Part shown: piece by piece, positions 4,687-40,464 of the stretch
How the letters are laid out: every line of letters begins with the position of its first letter
Position numbering within the stretch: position 1 is the stretch's first letter
IMG/VR virus record: IMGVR_UViG_3300045988_124839
Direction: 5' to 3' (one strand)
Length of the DNA: 44,051 nt
Origin: a virus
Lineage: Duplodnaviria > Heunggongvirae > Uroviricota > Caudoviricetes
The notes under the pieces: model-generated
The model's input: the letters and a program-made list of their open reading frames with translations, nothing else
Told to the model about the DNA's origin: nothing
Databases searched by the model: none
Position numbers and translations under genes: made by a program

Positions 4687-7600
4687 ATGGGTAAAGGCAG
4701 CAGTAAGGGGCATACCCCGCGCGAAGCGAAGGATAACCTGAAATCCACGCAGTTACTGAGTGTGATCGATGCCATCAGCGAAGGGCCGATTGAAGGTCCG
4801 GTGGATGGATTAAAAAGCGTGCTGCTGAACAGTACGCCGGTGCTGGACAGTGAGGGGAATACCAATATATCCGGTGTCACGGTGGTGTTCCGGGCAGGTG
4901 AGCAGGAGCAGACACCGCCGGAGGGATTTGAATCCTCCGGTTCCGAGACGGTGCTGGGTACGGAAGTGAAATATGACACGCCGATCACCCGGACCATCAC
5001 GTCGGCAAACATCGACCGTCTGCGCTTTACCTTCGGTGTGCAGGCACTGGTGGAAACCACCTCAAAGGGGGACAGGAATCCATCGGAAGTCCGCCTGCTG
5101 GTTCAGATACAGCGTAACGGTGGCTGGGTGACAGAAAAAGACATCACCATTAAGGGCAAAACCACCTCGCAGTATCTGGCCTCGGTGGTGGTGGATAACC
5201 TGCCGCCGCGCCCGTTTAATATCCGGATGCGCAGGATGACGCCGGACAGCACCACAGACCAGCTGCAGAACAAAACGCTCTGGTCGTCATACACCGAAAT
5301 CATCGATGTGAAACAGGGCTACCCGAACACGGCACTGGTCGGCGTACAGGTGGATTCGGAGCAGTTCGGCAGCCAGCAGGTGAGCCGTAATTATCATCTT
5401 CGCGGGCGCATTCTGCAGGTGCCGTCGAACTATAACCCGCAGACGCGGCAATACAGCGGTATCTGGGACGGGACGTTTAAACCGGCATACAGCAACAACA
5501 TGGCCTGGTGTCTGTGGGATATGCTGACCCATCCGCGCTACGGCATGGGGAAACGTCTTGGTGCGGCGGATGTGGATAAATGGGCGCTGTATGTCATCGG
5601 CCAGAATTGCGACCAGTCGGTGCCGGACGGCTTTGGCGGCACGGAGCCGCGCATCACCTGTAACGCTTACCTGACCACACAGCGCAAGGCGTGGGATGTG
5701 CTCAGTGATTTCTGCTCGGCGATGCGCTGTATGCCGGTATGGAACGGGCAGACGCTGACGTTCGTGCAGGACCGGCCGTCGGATAAGGTGTGGACCTATA
5801 ACCGCAGTAATGTGGTGATGCCGGATGATGGCGCGCCGTTCCGCTACAGTTTCAGCGCCCTGAAGGACCGCCATAATGCCGTTGAGGTGAACTGGATTGA
5901 CCCGAACAACGGCTGGGAGACGGCGACAGAGCTTGTTGAAGATACGCAGGCCATTCTCCGTTACGGTCGTAACGTCACGAAGATGGACGCCTTTGGCTGT
6001 ACCAGCCGGGGGCAGGCACACCGCGCCGGGCTGTGGCTGATTAAAACAGAACTGCTGGAAACGCAGACCGTGGATTTCAGCGTCGGCGCAGAAGGGCTTC
6101 GCCATGTGCCGGGCGATGTCATTGAAATCTGTGATGATGACTATGCCGGTATCAGCACCGGTGGTCGCGTGCTGGCGGTGAACAGCCAGACCCGGACGCT
6201 GACGCTCGACCGTGAAATCACGCTGCCATCCTCCGGTACCACGCTGATAAGCCTGGTTGACGGAAGTGGCAATCCGGTCAGCGTGGAGGTTCAGTCCGTC
6301 ACCGACGGCGTGAAGGTAAAAGTGAGCCGTGTTCCTGACGGTGTTGCTGAATACAGCGTATGGGGGCTGAAGCTGCCGACGCTGCGCCAGCGACTGTTCC
6401 GCTGCGTGAGTATCCGTGAGAACGACGACGGCACGTATGCCATCACCGCCGTGCAGCATGTGCCGGAAAAAGAGGCCATCGTGGATAACGGGGCGCACTT
6501 TGACGGCGAACAGAGTGGCACGGTGAACGGTGTCACGCCGCCAGCGGTGCAGCACCTGACCGCAGAAGTCACTGCAGACAGCGGGGAATATCAGGTGCTG
6601 GCGCGATGGGACACACCGAAGGTGGTGAAGGGCGTGAGCTTCCTGCTCCGTCTGACCGTAACAGCGGACGACGGCAGTGAGCGGCTGGTCAGCACGGCCC
6701 GGACGACGGAAACCACATACCGCTTCACGCAACTGGCGCTGGGGAACTACAGGCTGACAGTCCGGGCGGTAAATGCGTGGGGGCAGCAGGGAGATCCGGC
6801 GTCGGTATCGTTCCGGATTGCCGCACCGGCAGCACCGTCGCGGATTGAGCTGACGCCGGGCTATTTTCAGATAACCGCAACGCCGCATCTTGCCGTTTAT
6901 GATCCGACGGTACAGTTTGAGTTCTGGTTCTCGGAAAAGCGGATTACGGATATCAGGCAGGTTGAAACCAGCGCACGTTATCTTGGTACGGCGCTGTACT
7001 GGATAGCCGCCAGTATCAATATCAAGCCGGGCCATGATTATTATTTTTACATCCGCAGTGTGAACACCGTTGGCAAATCGGCATTCGTGGAGGCTGTCGG
7101 TCGGGCGAGCGATGATGCAGAAGGTTACCTGGATTTTTTCAAAGGCCAGATAACCGAATCCCATCTCGGCAAGGAGCTGCTGGAAAAAGTCGACCTGACG
7201 GAGGATAACGCCAGCAGACTGGATGAGTTTTCGAAAGAGTGGAAAGATGCCAACGATAAATGGAATGCCATGTGGGGCGTCAAAATTGAGCAGACCAAAG
7301 ACGGCAAACATTATGTCGCGGGGCTTGGCCTCAGCATGGAGGATACGGAGGAAGGCAAACTGAGTCAGTTCCTGGTTGCCGCTAACCGTATCGCGTTTAT
7401 TGACCCGGCAAACGGGAATGAAACGCCGATGTTTGTGGCGCAGGGCAACCAGATATTCATGAATGAAGTGTTCCTGAAATATCTGACGGCTCCCACCATT
7501 ACCAGCGGCGGTAATCCTCCGGCATTTTCCCTGACACCGGACGGGCGGCTGACGGCAAAAAATGCCGATATCAGCGGTAACGTGAATGCGAACTCCGGGA

Positions 7601-13018: not shown

Positions 13019-13984
13019 TTAATTATCAGTAGATTGTTCCTCTAGTAACAACTCAATTCTGCTTAGTATTTCTTTAGATATTTTTCGGCTATCAATTTTT
13101 ATAGTTACAAAATTACCTTTATATCTAGCCGTGATCCCTTCCCCATATTTTTTCTCGTCTTTTGTTTTTTCCTCGTCGCCAACCAGAACAGAGTCAGATA
13201 ATATTTGTATAATCCGTGAAGCTTCTAAATCCTCGCCGTTTTTTTTAATTGCCAGAAGATGATGAGCAGCATTGCTCATGGCAGCCATGTTTTTTTTGTA
13301 GACCTTAAACAAAGAATCTCCAGCACGAGCTGACAGTTCTCCTGGATGATTGAAGATAGCTAATATATCTTTTGGTAGACCAGCTGTATTAATACAGCGA
13401 GTGATAATATTTCTGTCTATATTTTCAGCCTCGGCTAATGCTTTAACGTTACCATCAAAGTCATTTAGCTTGCGTAAGTATCTCTTTCCTCTTTCGTATG
13501 CACTAATAGGCCTATAATCGTTACCAATTTGGGATAACCAATGCATCTGTTCATCGTCGAGATCACCTATTAAGACGCGATAGTCACATCCTGTTAATAT
13601 CGCTGCTTTTCTTCTACGTGAGCCGTCAGCGACTTCAACGATTCCAGACACTTTTCTGGCGAAAGCTGGATTTTGTTGTCCAGACGTTAGAAAAGATGGG
13701 ATTAAATCGGCTAGAGAGGATTCATTTAATAAATCTTGATCGCGTTCATTACCTAGCCATACCATTGTTGCCATTTCAACTTTATCTGCGGGAATTGTCT
13801 CTAACTTAAAGTTAACATTACGTCCGCATACTGGCAAAGTTATGCTGTTACCGGTTAATGAACTCAGTTGACGTTTTAAATCACCAACCATAGGTGATAC
13901 GGGCTGATGTTCAGGGGCATGATGATTATTACTCATAATGCGATTAATATCTGGAGCATTTTTTAGAAGAGAGCGCTGTTTCAT
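13019..13984 (-). CDS. sopB: partition protein SopB (ParB-type centromere-binding protein)
   Basis: 321 aa; immediately downstream of and overlapping (ATGA) the ParA-type ATPase gene; size and arrangement as F/N15 sopAB. Confidence 0.85.
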   Translation of the reverse strand: MKQRSLLKNAPDINRIMSNNHHAPEHQPVSPMVGDLKRQLSSLTGNSITLPVCGRNVNFKLETIPADKVEMATMVWLGNERDQDLLNESSLADLIPSFLTSGQQNPAFARKVSGIVEVADGSRRRKAAILTGCDYRVLIGDLDDEQMHWLSQIGNDYRPISAYERGKRYLRKLNDFDGNVKALAEAENIDRNIITRCINTAGLPKDILAIFNHPGELSARAGDSLFKVYKKNMAAMSNAAHHLLAIKKNGEDLEASRIIQILSDSVLVGDEEKTKDEKKYGEGITARYKGNFVTIKIDSRKISKEILSRIELLLEEQSTDN

Positions 13985-15150
13985 TATTCGTTCTCCCAGC
14001 GAGGTTTTATTAGATCATCAAAAATTTCTCGGCAAACAGGGTCCCATATAGAAACAGCATTTCTCCATGCATTCAATGTTGAACGTTGGTTTGCTGCTTG
14101 TTCAAATACTGTTCTCATTTTTATCTGGCCTTTACCTACTTCATCGGTAACGCGTACAACCTGACGTAATACCATTGATCCCCATGTATTTCTTATTTGT
14201 TCTTCCATCCATCGTGATTGATTCCCTGTAGTGAGACTATATTTAGTCAGAAGTAAGCGAACGGTTGGCTCAAATCCACCTAGGTCAACGCTTTCCAATA
14301 GATCGAGAAGCATTGTGAAAAACTGTAGAACAGAAGCGTAATCAAATAATTCTGCAGGTGTAGCAACAACAATAACGTCAGCGGCACAAACAACGTTAAT
14401 GGTTCCTGTACCGAGGTTCGGAGCACTATCTATAACGATAACATCGTAGTTATCCCAAACTGATTCAATAGCTGCGCGCAGCATAAGGTGTGGAGGATGA
14501 GGCAATTTACCCTGAGCATGATATTGCATGAGATCTGTTTCTATACGATGTAAAGCTAGGCAGCTAGGGATAATGTCTAGCCCAGGCCAACATGTTGGCT
14601 TTATAGCATATTCAGCGTTATCGCGTTCTCCTAAGTAAAATGGCAGTAAAGTATCCTCGGCATGGATATGTAAATCAGGAACATAACCGTGATACATAGA
14701 GGCCGTGCCTTGAGGATCGTTACCTTCAACCAAAAGAACACGATGACCTTGTAATGCTAACCATTGAGCTTGATGTACCGCAGACGATGTTTTATAAACG
14801 CCGCCTTTGTGTGACATAACGGCAAGCACAACAGGGTTTTTATCTTGTGGTCGTTGGTTTGGGTTGCCAAAAACTGCTCGCATACTGTTGATTTGATCTA
14901 TGGTATAACCAGCACGACGTTCAATTCTTCCTCTCATTTCAAAGTCAGGTGCAGGTAAACGCCCGCTCTTCTCAGCATCTCTAATTGCTTGAGGAGTTAC
15001 ACCAATTAAATCTGCTACTTCAGTTATACCCCATCGGCGGGTGATACGCCGAGCTTCAGGACTATCATCACCGAATTGAGCGATAGCAATTGCTTGGGTC
15101 ATTTCTTGACCTCTCGTAACACAATCTTGCAATAACTTTTTCAAAGACAT
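13984..15150 (-). CDS. sopA: partition ATPase SopA (ParA, type Ia with N-terminal HTH extension)
   Basis: 388 aa; deviant Walker A MSHKGGVYKTSS; long N-terminal extension typical of type Ia ParA. Confidence 0.9.
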   Translation of the reverse strand: MSLKKLLQDCVTRGQEMTQAIAIAQFGDDSPEARRITRRWGITEVADLIGVTPQAIRDAEKSGRLPAPDFEMRGRIERRAGYTIDQINSMRAVFGNPNQRPQDKNPVVLAVMSHKGGVYKTSSAVHQAQWLALQGHRVLLVEGNDPQGTASMYHGYVPDLHIHAEDTLLPFYLGERDNAEYAIKPTCWPGLDIIPSCLALHRIETDLMQYHAQGKLPHPPHLMLRAAIESVWDNYDVIVIDSAPNLGTGTINVVCAADVIVVATPAELFDYASVLQFFTMLLDLLESVDLGGFEPTVRLLLTKYSLTTGNQSRWMEEQIRNTWGSMVLRQVVRVTDEVGKGQIKMRTVFEQAANQRSTLNAWRNAVSIWDPVCREIFDDLIKPRWENE

Positions 15151-15586: not shown

Positions 15587-15628
15587 ACATAATTCCCCAT
15601 TATACGCGCGTATAATGGGGAATTATGT
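15587..15628. other. telRL: telRL-like telomere resolution site (42-bp perfect palindrome, protelomerase target)
   Basis: ACATAATTCCCCATTATACGCGCGTATAATGGGGAATTATGT is a perfect palindrome; core CCATTATACGCGCGTATAATGG matches the N15 telO core as recalled; 170 bp upstream of telN. Confidence 0.88.
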
Positions 15629-15798: not shown

Positions 15799-17706
15799 AT
15801 GAGCAAAGTAAAAATCGGTGAATTAATAAACTCACTTGTTAGCGATGTTGAGTCAATAGATAACTCTGACCGTCCTCAAGGGGAAAAAACAAAAAAAATA
15901 AAAGCTGTTGCATTAAAATTTAAAAATGCATTATTTAATGACAAGCGAAAGTTTAGGGGGAAAGGATTAGAAAAAAGAATTACAGCCAACACATTCAATG
16001 CCTATATGAGCAGGGCCAGAAAACGGTTTGATGATAAACTTCATCATAGCTTTGAAAAAAATATACATCGCCTATCTGAAAAGTATCCTTTATATAATGA
16101 GGAGCTATTATCATGGCTTTCTCTACCTGCTGCCGATATTCGCCAGAGAATGTCAGCTTTACAGGCAAAATTAAAATTAATTCTCCCTTTATCAGAAGAT
16201 TTATCTAATATCAGAATTGGTGATAACAAAAGTCATAATAAGTTATTAAAATTATCAAATAAATATAAAGAGTGGCAATTCGCCATTTCTGATTTAACTA
16301 GCGATAACTGGAAAGATAAGCGCGATTATTTATATAAATTACTACAGCAAGGATCTGCCTTACTTGAGGAGTTGAATCAGCTAAAAGTTAACCATGAGAT
16401 TCTCTATCATCTTCAACTAAGCCCTGCCGAACGCGCATCTATCCAGCAACGATGGGCAGACGTTCTGCACAATAAGAAACGTAACGTGGTGGTCATTGAT
16501 TACCCTAAATATATGCAAGCTATTTACGATATTATAAATAGCCCTGCTACATTAAATAATCTAAACACTCGTTCAGGTATGGCTCCTTTGGCATTTGCAC
16601 TTGCTGCATTGTCAGGAAGACGAATGATTGAGATTATGTATCAAGGTACATTTACTGTTTCTGGTAAGTATACCGTTGATTTTTTAGGCCAAGCAAAAAA
16701 AAGAACTTCTGATGATATAACCAGAAAAATATATACATTATGCGAAGCAAAAACATTTGTTTATTTAATAAATGTACTTCGCTCATGCCCAGCAGCATCT
16801 GATTTTGATGATGTCGTTAAAGGTTATGGAGATAACGACACACGCTCTGAAAACGGACGGATTAATGCCATATTAGCAAAGGCTTTTAACCCGTGGGTTA
16901 AATCATTTTTCAAAGATGACCGCCGTGTTTATAAAGATAGTCGTGCTATTTATGCCCGTATTGCGTATGAAATGTTTTTCCGCGTAGATCCTCGTTGGAA
17001 AAACGTAGATGAGGATGTTTTCTTTATGGAAATTTTAGGCCATGACGATGAAAACACTCAATTACACTATAAGCAATTCAAGCTGGCCAACTTCTCAAAG
17101 ACATGGAGGCCAAATACTGGAAACGAAAATACCAGGCTGGAAGCATTGCAGCAGCTTGATGACGAAATGCCAGGATTCGCCAGAGGAGATGCCGGAGTTC
17201 GTCTGCATAACACAGTTAAGCAGCTGGTAGAGCAGGACCCCTCTATAAAAATCACGAACAGCACTCTAAGAGCATTCAAATTTAGCCCTACAATGATTAG
17301 TCGATACCTGGAATTTGCTGCTGATGCTCTGGGGCAATTTGTTGGCGAAAATGGACAATGGCAGCTGAAAATAGATTCTCCAGAAATCGTTATGCCTGAC
17401 GAAGAAGAGCTGGAAGCAATACCTGAACAGACGGATGAATTATCAGAGGATGACGATCTGGATGACGACGAAATTGAGATAGAGGAAGAGGAAGAGGAAG
17501 AGGAAGAGGAAGAGAGCGTAGAAGAACAGCAACCGCCCGCGCCTTCTTCACCTGTATCTAAGCCGGTATTTAAGCCTGTGAGAAATATTGGTGATGGCTC
17601 ATACGTTGTTGAGTTTCATTATAATGGCCAGAATTATGCTTGGTCCGGCAGTGCAAACAGCCCTATATCAGCAATGCAGTTAGCATGGCTGACATATTTC
17701 GGATAA
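15799..17706 (+). CDS. telN: protelomerase TelN
   Basis: 635 aa; N-terminus MSKVKIGELIN...RPQG.KTK.IKA...KNALFNDKRKFRGKGL.KRITANTFNAYMSRARKRFDDKLHHSF and much of the body match N15 TelN as recalled; acidic Glu/Asp-rich C-terminal tract; RBS AGGAGAGGAAAG. Confidence 0.95.
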   Translation: MSKVKIGELINSLVSDVESIDNSDRPQGEKTKKIKAVALKFKNALFNDKRKFRGKGLEKRITANTFNAYMSRARKRFDDKLHHSFEKNIHRLSEKYPLYNEELLSWLSLPAADIRQRMSALQAKLKLILPLSEDLSNIRIGDNKSHNKLLKLSNKYKEWQFAISDLTSDNWKDKRDYLYKLLQQGSALLEELNQLKVNHEILYHLQLSPAERASIQQRWADVLHNKKRNVVVIDYPKYMQAIYDIINSPATLNNLNTRSGMAPLAFALAALSGRRMIEIMYQGTFTVSGKYTVDFLGQAKKRTSDDITRKIYTLCEAKTFVYLINVLRSCPAASDFDDVVKGYGDNDTRSENGRINAILAKAFNPWVKSFFKDDRRVYKDSRAIYARIAYEMFFRVDPRWKNVDEDVFFMEILGHDDENTQLHYKQFKLANFSKTWRPNTGNENTRLEALQQLDDEMPGFARGDAGVRLHNTVKQLVEQDPSIKITNSTLRAFKFSPTMISRYLEFAADALGQFVGENGQWQLKIDSPEIVMPDEEELEAIPEQTDELSEDDDLDDDEIEIEEEEEEEEEEESVEEQQPPAPSSPVSKPVFKPVRNIGDGSYVVEFHYNGQNYAWSGSANSPISAMQLAWLTYFG

Positions 17707-33993: not shown

Positions 33994-34011
33994 TTGCGAC
34001 CGTGGTCGCAC
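33994..34011. other. SopB-binding-like centromere palindrome 3 (TTGCGACC-GT-GGTCGCAC)
   Basis: 8-2-8 palindrome with one mismatch at the first base. Confidence 0.65.
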
Positions 34012-34021
34012 ATTAAATACC

Positions 34022-34193
34022 GCGCTGCATCGTCGCCGTATTTCCGCATTAACCATGACCGTAGCCCGACGGGGAACTCCTCTGCGCGAGTGTGCGGAAA
34101 TAATCAAAAACGATGCACACCGGGTTTTTACCGCGCTAATGATTCGCGGGTTTGTCCCTCATGCTCGCCAGTCCTGTGCGAGGGTGGAAGAAA
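34022..34193. repeat. 172-bp direct repeat, copy A (conserved lambdoid intergenic element)
   Basis: About 85% identical to copy B at 35807-35978, with shared blocks CCGTAGCCCGACGGGGAACTCC and ATAATCAAAAACGATGCACACCGGGTTTTTACCGCG; lies between palindromes 3 and 4. Confidence 0.8.
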
Positions 34194-34213
34194 CAGGGCA
34201 TGTATTCAGGAGC

Positions 34214-34231
34214 GTGCGACCGTGGTCGCAC
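34214..34231. other. SopB-binding-like centromere palindrome 4 (GTGCGACC-GT-GGTCGCAC)
   Basis: Perfect copy of the site-1 sequence, 23 bp upstream of the cassette gene start. Confidence 0.7.
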
Positions 34232-34254
34232 GGTATCTTTGTCAGGAGGTTTTG

Positions 34255-35115
34255 ATGAAAGAGTTGCAAAAAATTAATTCAATAATGGAAAGGTTAAGTG
34301 CTCTTGAGCGTAAGCTGGACGATTGTGGAAAGCTGTGTGTTGAAAAGCAAAATGAGCTTTACCGGGAATTTTTTACAATCGTAAGTGAGCTGATGCCAAT
34401 TGTTAATAACTGCCTGATGACATCCAGATTTTTTAATGTCGATGCTACTACATCCAGAAAATTTTCTGTGAAAATTCAAGAAAGAGTTTCTGGTAGTGTG
34501 ACAAGAGAGATGGCTGAACAGTTGGTGGCAATGAGCAATAAAACAAAAAGAAAAAAGGCATTGCTTGTAACAGCAAATCAGCTTTCAGGGCGCGTTGACT
34601 TTCAGGTCAGACAGGGTGGGCGTGTACTGGTAAATGATGCGTTCGTTGGACGTAGCTTTAGTCCGTACTCGATGAAATATGATGTTGATGCAGATGATCA
34701 GGATATCAGTATTTCTTGGAAATCTGAGACAGCAGGGATCGTATTAACAGCAGAGTTGTTGAGTGATGATAAAAATGATGTCCGGCATCATTTGGACGAA
34801 AAGAATCATATTTCTGAAATCTGTATGAAACCACGTAGTGGAATGACTTTATTGTCGCGAACTCTTGCTGCTGGCTTTTCTTTACCGGAGAAACGTGTGC
34901 TTCTGGTAGTGCCTGAAGATGCAGATATTCGACCACTGAATGGCTGTGATGTTATTAGTGCAAAAACATTGCATACCAGAATCATGCCTGTACCTGATGT
35001 GGTCATCATTGATGATATTGAGAAATGCAAATCTGTTTCCTCAACTGCCATAATCAAACGAATTTTACGTTGTAGCTCGTCGGCTGTTGTATTCCGGAAG
35101 CAGTTACATAACTAA
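34255..35115 (+). CDS. hypothetical protein (286 aa) of AT-rich accessory cassette
   Basis: Strong RBS AGGAGG 7 nt before ATG at 34255; N-terminal coiled-coil; no recognisable catalytic motif; ORF-track entry 33994-35115 is an upstream TTG extension through palindrome 3. Confidence 0.6.
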   Translation: MKELQKINSIMERLSALERKLDDCGKLCVEKQNELYREFFTIVSELMPIVNNCLMTSRFFNVDATTSRKFSVKIQERVSGSVTREMAEQLVAMSNKTKRKKALLVTANQLSGRVDFQVRQGGRVLVNDAFVGRSFSPYSMKYDVDADDQDISISWKSETAGIVLTAELLSDDKNDVRHHLDEKNHISEICMKPRSGMTLLSRTLAAGFSLPEKRVLLVVPEDADIRPLNGCDVISAKTLHTRIMPVPDVVIIDDIEKCKSVSSTAIIKRILRCSSSAVVFRKQLHN

Positions 35116-35240
35116 CCAGTTTTGTTTTGCAGAACATCCTCAATTAAAAGCTTATAGAAAGAGAGCCTGAGATATTTTTTCTGTCTCTCGTAGTTGTTTA
35201 TTTTTTTTTCGAACAGGCTTACAACTTACAGGATATAAAT

Positions 35241-35690
35241 ATGCAAGAAGAAGCAAATAAAATTCTTGTTGATTTATTGAAGAAGGCCAGCGATGGAATT
35301 GATTCCGCCATTGCATTCAGTCAGGCTCAGATTCCGGATGTTGTTCATCAGTTGCTGGTATGGAATATGGTTGATAGCCTGATTAAAACATTAATAGCCA
35401 TTTCAACAATCCCGCTGGTTTTCTGGTTTATGAAGAAACAGTACCAAAAAGTTGAAATTGGTAAGTTCGATGATGAAGGATGGTCATGGGATAAGGGGAA
35501 GACTAAATACAAACCGACTATGATTTGGGAAAGTAACGGTGAGATTAGTTTTCTAATCTTACCATTAGCTGCAGTTTTTGTTCTGTGGGTAAGTTTTATT
35601 ATTGCTGTAGTAACCAATATGACATGGTTAAAAATTTGGCTGGCACCTAAGTTATATCTAATCGAATACGCAGCATCACTAATTACATAG
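35241..35690 (+). CDS. membrane protein (149 aa, two transmembrane segments) of accessory cassette
   Basis: Hydrophobic segments LIKTLIAISTIPLVFWF and ISFLILPLAAVFVLWVSFIIAVV; AT-rich; follows the 286-aa gene on the same strand. Confidence 0.55.
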   Translation: MQEEANKILVDLLKKASDGIDSAIAFSQAQIPDVVHQLLVWNMVDSLIKTLIAISTIPLVFWFMKKQYQKVEIGKFDDEGWSWDKGKTKYKPTMIWESNGEISFLILPLAAVFVLWVSFIIAVVTNMTWLKIWLAPKLYLIEYAASLIT

Positions 35691-35806
35691 TCCATTACAA
35701 AAGCCATTCGCTACTGAGTGGCTTTGATAATGGCTTATACCCTACACGGGATAACTTAACTGATATCCCTTTTAACGGATAAAGGTATTCAAGCCTGACA
35801 CATCAT

Positions 35807-35978
35807 GCGCTGTATCGTCGCCGTATTCCCGTATTAACAGAGACCGTAGCCCGACGGGGAACTCCTTCTGCGCGAGTGTGCGGGAATAATCAAAAACGAT
35901 GCACACCGGGTTTTTACCGCGTTTATGGTGCGCGATTTTGTCCCTCATAGTCGCCCGTCCGGTGCGATGGTGGAAGAA
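35807..35978. repeat. 172-bp direct repeat, copy B (adjacent to cos)
   Basis: Direct repeat of 34022-34193; ends about 70 bp upstream of the cosN-like sequence. Confidence 0.8.
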
Positions 35979-36009
35979 GCCGGATATTAATGCAAGTGAT
36001 AATTATTCT

Positions 36010-36237
36010 CACCTTTGCGGGTCCTTTCCGGCGATCCGGCAGGCTACGGGGCGGAAGGCGCGCGGGTTTTCGCTATTTATGAAAATTTTCCGGTTTAAGG
36101 CGTTTCCGTTCTTCTTCGCCGTAACTTAATGTTTTTATTTAAAACACCCCCTGAAAAGAAAGGAAACGACAGATGCTGAAAACGGGCTTTTTGGCCTCTG
36201 TCGTTTCCTTTCTCTGTTTTTGTCCGTGGAATGAACA
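36010..36237 (+). other. cos: cos region (cosQ/cosN/cosB-like) upstream of Nu1
   Basis: ...GGGTCCTTTCCGGCGATCCGGCAGGCTACG / GGGCGGAAGGCG / CGCGGGTTTTCGCTATTTATGAAAATTTTCCGG... is near-identical to the lambda right-end/left-end junction as recalled, except inside the 12-nt cosN position (36049-36060). Confidence 0.75.
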
Positions 36238-36757
36238 ATGGAAGTCAACAAAAAGCAGCTGGCTGATATTTTCGGTGCGAGTATCCGTACCATTCAGAAC
36301 TGGCAGGAGCAGGGAATGCCCGTTCTGCGAGGCGGTGGCAAGGGTAATGAGGTGCTTTATGATTCTGCCGCCGTCATAAAATGGTATGCCGAAAGGGATG
36401 CTGAAATTGAGAACGAAAAGCTGCGCCGGGAGGTTGAAGAACTGCGGCTGGCCAGCGAGGCAGATCTTCACCCCGGAACACTTGAATTTGAGCGCCATCG
36501 CCTGACCCGTGCTCAGGCGACGGCGCAGGAACTGAAAAATGCCAAAGAATCGGCTGAAGTGGTGGAAACCGCATTCTGTACTTTCGTGCTGTCGCGTATA
36601 GCAAGGGAAATATCCAGTATTCTCGACGGTATTCCTCTGTCGGTGCAGCGACGTTTTCCTGAGCTGGATAACCGGCATATTGATTTCCTGAAACGGGATA
36701 TCATCAAAGCCATGAACAAAGCAGCCGCGCTGGATGAACTGATACCGGGGTTGCTGA

Positions 36758-36783
<26 letters not shown>
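36238..36783 (+). CDS. Nu1: terminase small subunit Nu1
   Basis: 181 aa; MEVNKKQLADIFGASIRTIQNWQEQGMPV... matches lambda gpNu1 as recalled. Confidence 0.95.

Positions 36784-40464
<3,681 letters not shown>

Follow-up and report, generated by a model that had tools for sequence, protein, structure and literature searches.

The stretch of viral DNA analysed here (44,051 nt, IMG/VR record IMGVR_UViG_3300045988_124839; hereafter the window) very probably carries a functional lambda-specificity cos site (cosQ-cosN-cosB) at 36019–36213, on an N15-like linear phage-plasmid that has the packaging and head genes of lambda. Where lambda has the cohesive end GGGCGGCGACCT, the window reads GGGCGGAAGGCG. 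The divergence is no oddity of this sequence; it is a recurrent natural allele that matches the published pattern of cosN variation (PMC4669245).

Position and anatomy of the cos site

The site was placed by ungapped alignment of 36010–36237 to lambda cos. In a MAFFT alignment of window 35990–36260 with phage DE3, a lambda derivative, the match is gap-free from cosQ into cosB. The 12 nt annotated as the 'cos site' of DE3 (L003 1552–1563) read GGGCGGCGACCT, identical to bp 1–12 of the lambda record NC_001416, and their position corresponds to window 36049–36060, where the letters are GGGCGGAAGGCG. The two 12-mers agree at 7 of 12 bases and differ at bp 7, 8, 9, 10 and 12, and the earlier note had rightly seen the difference as concentrated in the 3′ half. 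Its description of the flanks as near-identical to lambda cosQ and cosB was also borne out: the cosQ heptamer is exact, R3, R2 and R1 are identical, and a 351-nt region matches lambda at 93% identity (E = 3e-124). Around the 12-mer, 29 of 34 bases are the same on the left and a stretch of 58 bp is identical on the right.

Two explanations of the divergent 12-mer had been offered, an altered cohesive end or an assignment misplaced by a few bases, with the true end being lambda-like. The first of these stands. A position error is excluded by the ungapped alignment to DE3 and NC_001416, which is anchored on records with annotated or record-defined ends, and nothing beyond the original caveat speaks for it. 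The lambda 12-mer is absent throughout the 44 kb window. The pattern GGGCGG-N6-CG has four matches there (about 1.2 expected by chance), and the one at 36049–36060 is alone in lying in a cos context. A misassigned position is scarcely credible.

The components of the site and the adjoining terminase genes are listed in Table 1. Both CG dinucleotides flanking the predicted nicks are kept in the window cosN, as are the left half GGGCGG (bp 1–6) and C11; conservation of the left half and of the flanking CG is a criterion taken from earlier work (PMC4669245, PMC9303873). The 16-bp core has rotational symmetry at 8 of 16 bp, compared with 10 of 16 in lambda, and the lambda symmetric pairs G3:C10 and G6:C7 are absent. 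The role of cosQ as a termination signal (PMC4669245) and the extent of R3 (PMC9026076) follow published descriptions, and by analogy with lambda, IHF would be expected to bind in the interval between R3 and R2 (PMC4669245). There are no indels relative to lambda from bp 1 to bp 136.

Table 1. Features of the cos region and the terminase genes (window coordinates)
Feature	Coordinates	Strand	Basis or comparison
cosQ (GGGTCCT; packaging-termination signal)	36019..36025	+	exact 7-mer, 23 bp from the predicted top-strand nick, the spacing of lambda and N15
cosN, 16 bp: CG/GGGCGGAAGGCG/CG	36047..36062	.	aligns without gaps with the cos annotated in lambda/DE3
Predicted 12-nt 5′ cohesive end GGGCGGAAGGCG (lambda GGGCGGCGACCT; N15 GGGCGGCGTCCG)	36049..36060	+	alignment
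cosB R3 (AGGCGTTTCCGTTCTT), critical TerS binding site	36098..36113	+	identical to lambda bp 50–65, cosN-to-R3 spacing identical
R3–R2 interval, holds IHF site I1 in lambda	36114..36156	.	4 substitutions relative to lambda (bp 71, 73, 97, 102), no indel
cosB R2 (inverted R repeat)	36157..36172	-	identical to lambda bp 109–124
cosB R1	36198..36213	+	16-mer identical to lambda bp 151–166; 1 nt closer through a 1-nt deletion between R2 and R1
Nu1 (TerS), 181 aa	36238..36783	+	Pfam Phage_Nu1 (PF07471), E = 1.3e-95
A (TerL), 641 aa, ATPase and endonuclease domains	36758..38683	+	Pfam GpA_ATPase, GpA_nuclease (PF05876, PF20454)

The start of Nu1 had been given as 178 bp downstream, which agrees with its ATG at 36238 when counted from the last base of the 12-mer. 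TerS is identical to lambda Nu1 at 169 of 181 residues (93%), and over the DNA-binding domain (residues 1–70) the identity is 100%. TerL shares 634 of 641 residues (99%) with lambda gpA. At 36173 (lambda bp 125), directly after R2, a G-to-A change is private to the window in comparison with PhiR46_1, YDC107_1 and lambda; the resulting ATG would start an ORF of 68 aa (36173–36379) that is probably meaningless.

During lytic growth, TerS (Nu1) would bind R3, R2 and R1 together with IHF and so position TerL (gpA), which is expected to nick the bottom strand at 36060/36061 and the top strand at 36048/36049. The product would be virion DNA with 12-nt 5′ cohesive ends GGGCGGAAGGCG in place of lambda GGGCGGCGACCT. 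The altered bases (bp 7, 8, 9, 10 and 12) belong to the half of cosN nearer to cosB, where the TerS-anchored nuclease probably reads little sequence, and for that reason the same enzyme should cut either allele. The two ends of a chromosome would be perfectly complementary, because both derive from the same cosN; the computed stability of the matched-end duplex is -18.6 kcal/mol for GGGCGGAAGGCG and -19.0 kcal/mol for lambda. Since no constrained element is altered in the window and the changes are limited to the tolerant half, there is good reason to expect the nicks at these positions and an overhang of this length.

The changed right half might instead shift the bottom-strand nick, giving ends that are not 12 nt long or are heterogeneous. 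Only one of the six right-half bases is that of lambda, and of the three internal symmetric pairs of lambda two are gone; in addition, the nuclease centres of TerL have low sequence specificity, and disturbed anchoring leads to inaccurate nicking (PMC9026076). However, the bottom-strand nick is placed by R3-bound TerS (PMC4669245, PMC9026076), and both R3 and its distance are exactly those of lambda. The CG step at the predicted bottom-strand nick (36061–36062) and C11 are conserved, and identical terminases occur beside both alleles (see below). A shifted nick is considered improbable, and nicking at the lambda positions is the preferred reading.

The element carrying the site

The element is an N15-like (Ravinvirus-type) linear phage-plasmid with a lambda-type packaging and structural module, and is not lambda. 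A 635-aa ORF at 15799–17706 encodes a protelomerase with TelK_N, muzzle, catalytic and stirrup domains. Upstream of this gene, at a distance of 170 bp, is a perfect palindrome of 42 bp (ACATAATTCCCCATTATACGC/GCGTATAATGGGGAATTATGT; 15587–15628) that resembles a telRL-type telomere-resolution site in its uncut state. Because tel and cos are both internal to the window, the source record must be written in circular or permuted form, not in virion or linear-plasmid form. Partition proteins of the ParA and SopB_HTH types (SopA/SopB-type) are encoded at 13019–15150, and a 1331-aa replicase ORF shows weak matches to Toprim and origin-binding proteins and about 76% nucleotide identity to the gene 37 region of N15.

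The closest relatives are PhiR46_1 and YDC107_1 (classified Ravinvirus), which have the same mosaic structure and the identical 12-mer GGGCGGAAGGCG. They match the non-structural half at 97.6% and 96.7%, respectively, compared with about 75% for N15 and phiKO2. For the tail and head genes the likeness is to lambda, at about 95%. The packaging module of N15 (simple cosB, gene 1 TerS, end GGGCGGCGTCCG) is not present in the window, where the module is lambda-type.

The cos region thus combines features of two known systems. With lambda it shares cosQ, bp 1–6, C11, the CG flanks, R3, R2, R1, the cosN-to-R3 spacing and the DNA-binding domain of TerS; it differs from lambda at bp 7, 8, 9, 10 and 12, in the 1-nt deletion between R2 and R1, and in residing on a protelomerase-bearing linear phage-plasmid rather than an integrating phage. 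The likeness to N15 lies in the linear plasmid prophage with its protelomerase, tel palindrome, RepA-type replicase and SopAB, and, within the packaging region, in a predicted 12-nt 5′ end that begins GGGCGG and has G at bp 12, a kept cosQ, and a TerL 87% identical to N15 gp2. In contrast, the N15 end GGGCGGCGTCCG has other bases than the window at bp 7, 8, 9 and 10, the simple cosB of N15 contains just one R3, of a different sequence, N15 TerS is encoded from bp 89 onwards, and N15 has a packaging specificity of its own (PMC4669245). Comparison with the cos sites of N15 and phiKO2 had been suggested in the earlier note; N15 proved informative, having a different allele and a different cosB, whereas the terminase and end of phiKO2 are unrelated and make it a poor comparator.

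To the left of cos, a direct repeat of about 190 nt (34022–34208 and 35807–35994, 85–90% identical) flanks an insert of 1.6 kb (34209–35806). The insert has two ORFs without a Pfam match, one within 33994–35115 and the other encoding a hydrophobic product of 149 aa (35241–35690), and looks like moron-type cargo. A small ORF on the minus strand (35772–35948) also lies in the repeat unit. A second cos within the upstream direct repeat was considered and rejected, as the repeat stops at 35994, before cosQ.

Recurrence of the allele and its independence of the terminase

Alleles were counted with 40-mer queries, each 28-nt megablast seed being forced to include at least bp 9–12. Among 5,426 complete E. 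coli genomes, GGGCGGAAGGCG was found in 170 genomes at 185 places (169 chromosomal, 16 on plasmid records), and the lambda allele in 4,101 genomes at 7,414 places (7,395 chromosomal, 19 on plasmid records). The right half AAGGCG is the second most common right-half allele next to a lambda-type cosB in E. coli. An unbiased N12 scan of IMG/VR gave, among the matches listed, at least 3 occurrences of the variant and at least 116 of the lambda allele (at least 114 in a stricter retabulation). In a complete IMG/VR scan for a lambda-type right flank with a base other than T at bp 12, exactly GGGCGGAAGGCG was carried by 76 of the 85 tabulated contigs; the others had CAGGCG (4), CAGACG (3), CGACCG (1) or CTGACG (1), which are plausible intermediates. 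Further right-half alleles occur in the wider superfamily, namely CGTCCG (N15 type), CAGCGG and GAGCGG.

In total, GGGCGGAAGGCG is present in 78 IMG/VR contigs, 31 metagenome contigs (mostly human gut), 23 PLSDB plasmids from E. coli, S. sonnei, E. albertii and E. fergusonii, and one further Escherichia species representative. All of the IMG/VR and metagenome contigs run through the site and none terminates there. Only two deposited phage genomes have this 12-mer, both Ravinvirus-type and one of them PhiR46_1, and neither record begins at it. The PhiR46_1 record names a propagation host, ECOR13, that differs from the likely source, and phages with names of the same style are plaque-forming (PMC13190303); from these two points we infer that PhiR46_1 is an infectious phage. 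Its link to Brenes & Laub 2025, made via PMC13190303, is likewise a probable one.

One chromosomal occurrence (L323; E. coli C11, NZ_CP010133.1 4341417–4359456) lies in what is left of an integrated prophage: the terminase and head genes have been deleted, and lom and tail-fibre genes come directly after the variant cos. Such an orphan cos could in principle be packaged by a resident helper phage of lambda specificity.

Recurrence alone is no proof that each copy is active, and some chromosomal copies lie in deleted prophage remnants. The cos of the window could itself be a decaying or non-functional copy, damage to its right half being tolerated under vertical maintenance as a plasmid. Phage-plasmids are able to persist without packaging, at least one chromosomal copy lies within a deleted remnant, and the private G-to-A at bp 125 beside R2 would fit such decay. 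The allele is also over-represented on plasmids, plasmid records having AAGGCG at 16 of their 35 lambda-type cos sites and chromosomes at 169 of 7,564, in counts where lineages are not dereplicated and shared ancestry is uncorrected. Decay would not, however, yield exact recurrence, and this set of five substitutions is met again, unchanged, in hundreds of independent contexts with hardly any other variants, for which reason it is disfavoured. All other cos subsites and both terminase genes of the window are intact, full-length TerL lies directly downstream at 43 variant-carrying loci, and the deposited record of PhiR46_1 is that of a propagated phage. That the site is a decayed copy is very unlikely, and a functional cos is the better reading.

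Full-length TerL was present downstream of cosN at 94 loci, 43 of them with the variant and 49 with the lambda allele. Across these 94 loci, no TerL or TerS residue segregated with the cosN allele, the best frequency difference being 0.29. A co-adapted nuclease was rejected, as the allele shows no covariation with TerL or TerS residues. Four distinct TerL sequences were each found with both alleles. Two loci, L011 with the lambda allele and L168 with the variant, have identical TerS and identical TerL. These cases are a natural confirmation that lambda terminase does not read bp 7–12.

Rightward of cosN, the DNA of L011 and L168 is about 98.6% identical over 3 kb; immediately to the left the two are unrelated, which places a mosaic junction at cosN. 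A junction of this kind would be expected if recombinant chromosomes were packaged and a heteroduplex cohesive end then segregated.

AAGGCG adjoins at least three R3/TerS (cosB/TerS) types and, in IMG/VR, at least eight different cosQ-side flanks. Given the many left flanks, the several R3/TerS types and the identical terminases found with either allele, it behaves as a 6-bp module separable from both flanks. One of its IMG/VR contexts is a non-lambda R3 (AATCATGTCGGTACTT) with a TerS beginning MKVNKKK..., a type that may be phage 21-like. The cos of phage 21 has cosQ and cosN flanks in common with lambda-type sites; the cosB and TerS of the window are lambda-type.

A subset of the IMG/VR variants (e.g., L126, L131 and L153) has a cosQ-to-nick distance of 22 bp, not 23 bp (flank ...GGGTCCTTCCGGTGGGGTGGCCTGCCACG). 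This is a 1-nt polymorphism on the termination side of the site; cos is spacing-sensitive on the cosB side.

Natural cosN variation and cohesive-end compatibility

The changes seen in the window fall where variation is known to be tolerated. In nature, cosQ, bp 1–6 and the flanking CG dinucleotides are conserved, and mutations of bp 7–12 have a minimal phenotype: C11G is silent, whereas the symmetric change G2C gives a 10-fold lower yield (PMC4669245). Lambda TerL cleaves cosN-lambda and cosN-N15 equally well (PMC4669245). These tolerance data comprise single and double changes and the 2-bp difference of N15 (PMC4669245); the window has a block of five of the six right-half bases changed. Natural right-half variants relative to lambda are N15 and phiD326 (bp 9 and 12), Gifsy-1 (bp 8, 9 and 11) and mEp213/LLS GGGCGGCGCGCT (PMC4669245, PMC12315714, PMC9303873). 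The window resembles phiD326, Gifsy-1 and mEp213/LLS in that variation is confined to bp 7–12, with bp 1–6 and the flanking CG kept, and is unlike them in differing from lambda at five positions compared with two or three.

In the searchable literature, GGGCGGAAGGCG was found on neither strand, the only hits being plant and Streptomyces papers. Natural cosN sequences were reportedly surveyed by Vahanian et al. 2017 (Virology 509:140), which lies outside that search and may include the 12-mer. Right-half variation of cosN is thus already known; the exact GGGCGGAAGGCG allele is apparently undescribed, unless the 2017 survey lists it, and so could be already known.

A paper of 2015 concluded that bp 7–12 are free of selection for maintenance (PMC4669245). 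Per-site diversity at the natural sites is 0.04–0.09 for bp 7–12, 0.09–0.37 for the cosQ–cosN spacer and 0.17–0.40 for cosB, a contrast that is qualitative only, as the table is ungapped and the left-flank values of the variant set are inflated by the 1-nt polymorphism in cosQ–cosN spacing. Natural bp 7–12 sequences, which rank with the least diverse positions of the site, seem not to drift freely, and consist of a few sharply defined, discrete alleles.

A speculative reading, to which we give rather little weight, is that cosN right halves fall into a limited number of discrete 'cohesive-end compatibility groups'. After a single crossover between two lambda-like phages, the left end of the recombinant would come from the cos of one parent and the right end from that of the other. 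A hybrid of the lambda and AAGGCG ends would have 5 of 12 mismatches and pair via GGGCGG only, at about -9.5 kcal/mol as against about -19 kcal/mol, or around half the annealing energy. The lambda/N15 pair with two mismatches comes to about -15 kcal/mol, and its yield is down about 4-fold (PMC4669245). If the reading were true, the allele would in part hinder productive recombination or co-packaging mix-ups, and positive frequency-dependent selection would keep the alleles few and sharply defined. The excess of AAGGCG on lambda-headed phage-plasmids would then represent insulation from the many resident prophages with the lambda allele. The discrete alleles, the energy of the hybrid ends and the plasmid excess allow this reading without demonstrating it. 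The discreteness of the alleles also makes sticky-end matching, as a limit on phage recombination, testable with existing lambda genetics.

The predicted ends are relevant to cosmid-style packaging and to the engineering of phage-plasmids. Annotation or terminus tools that look for the exact lambda 12-mer would miss the cos in about 2–3% of E. coli lambda-type prophages, and in nearly half of the counted lambda-headed phage-plasmid records (16/35).
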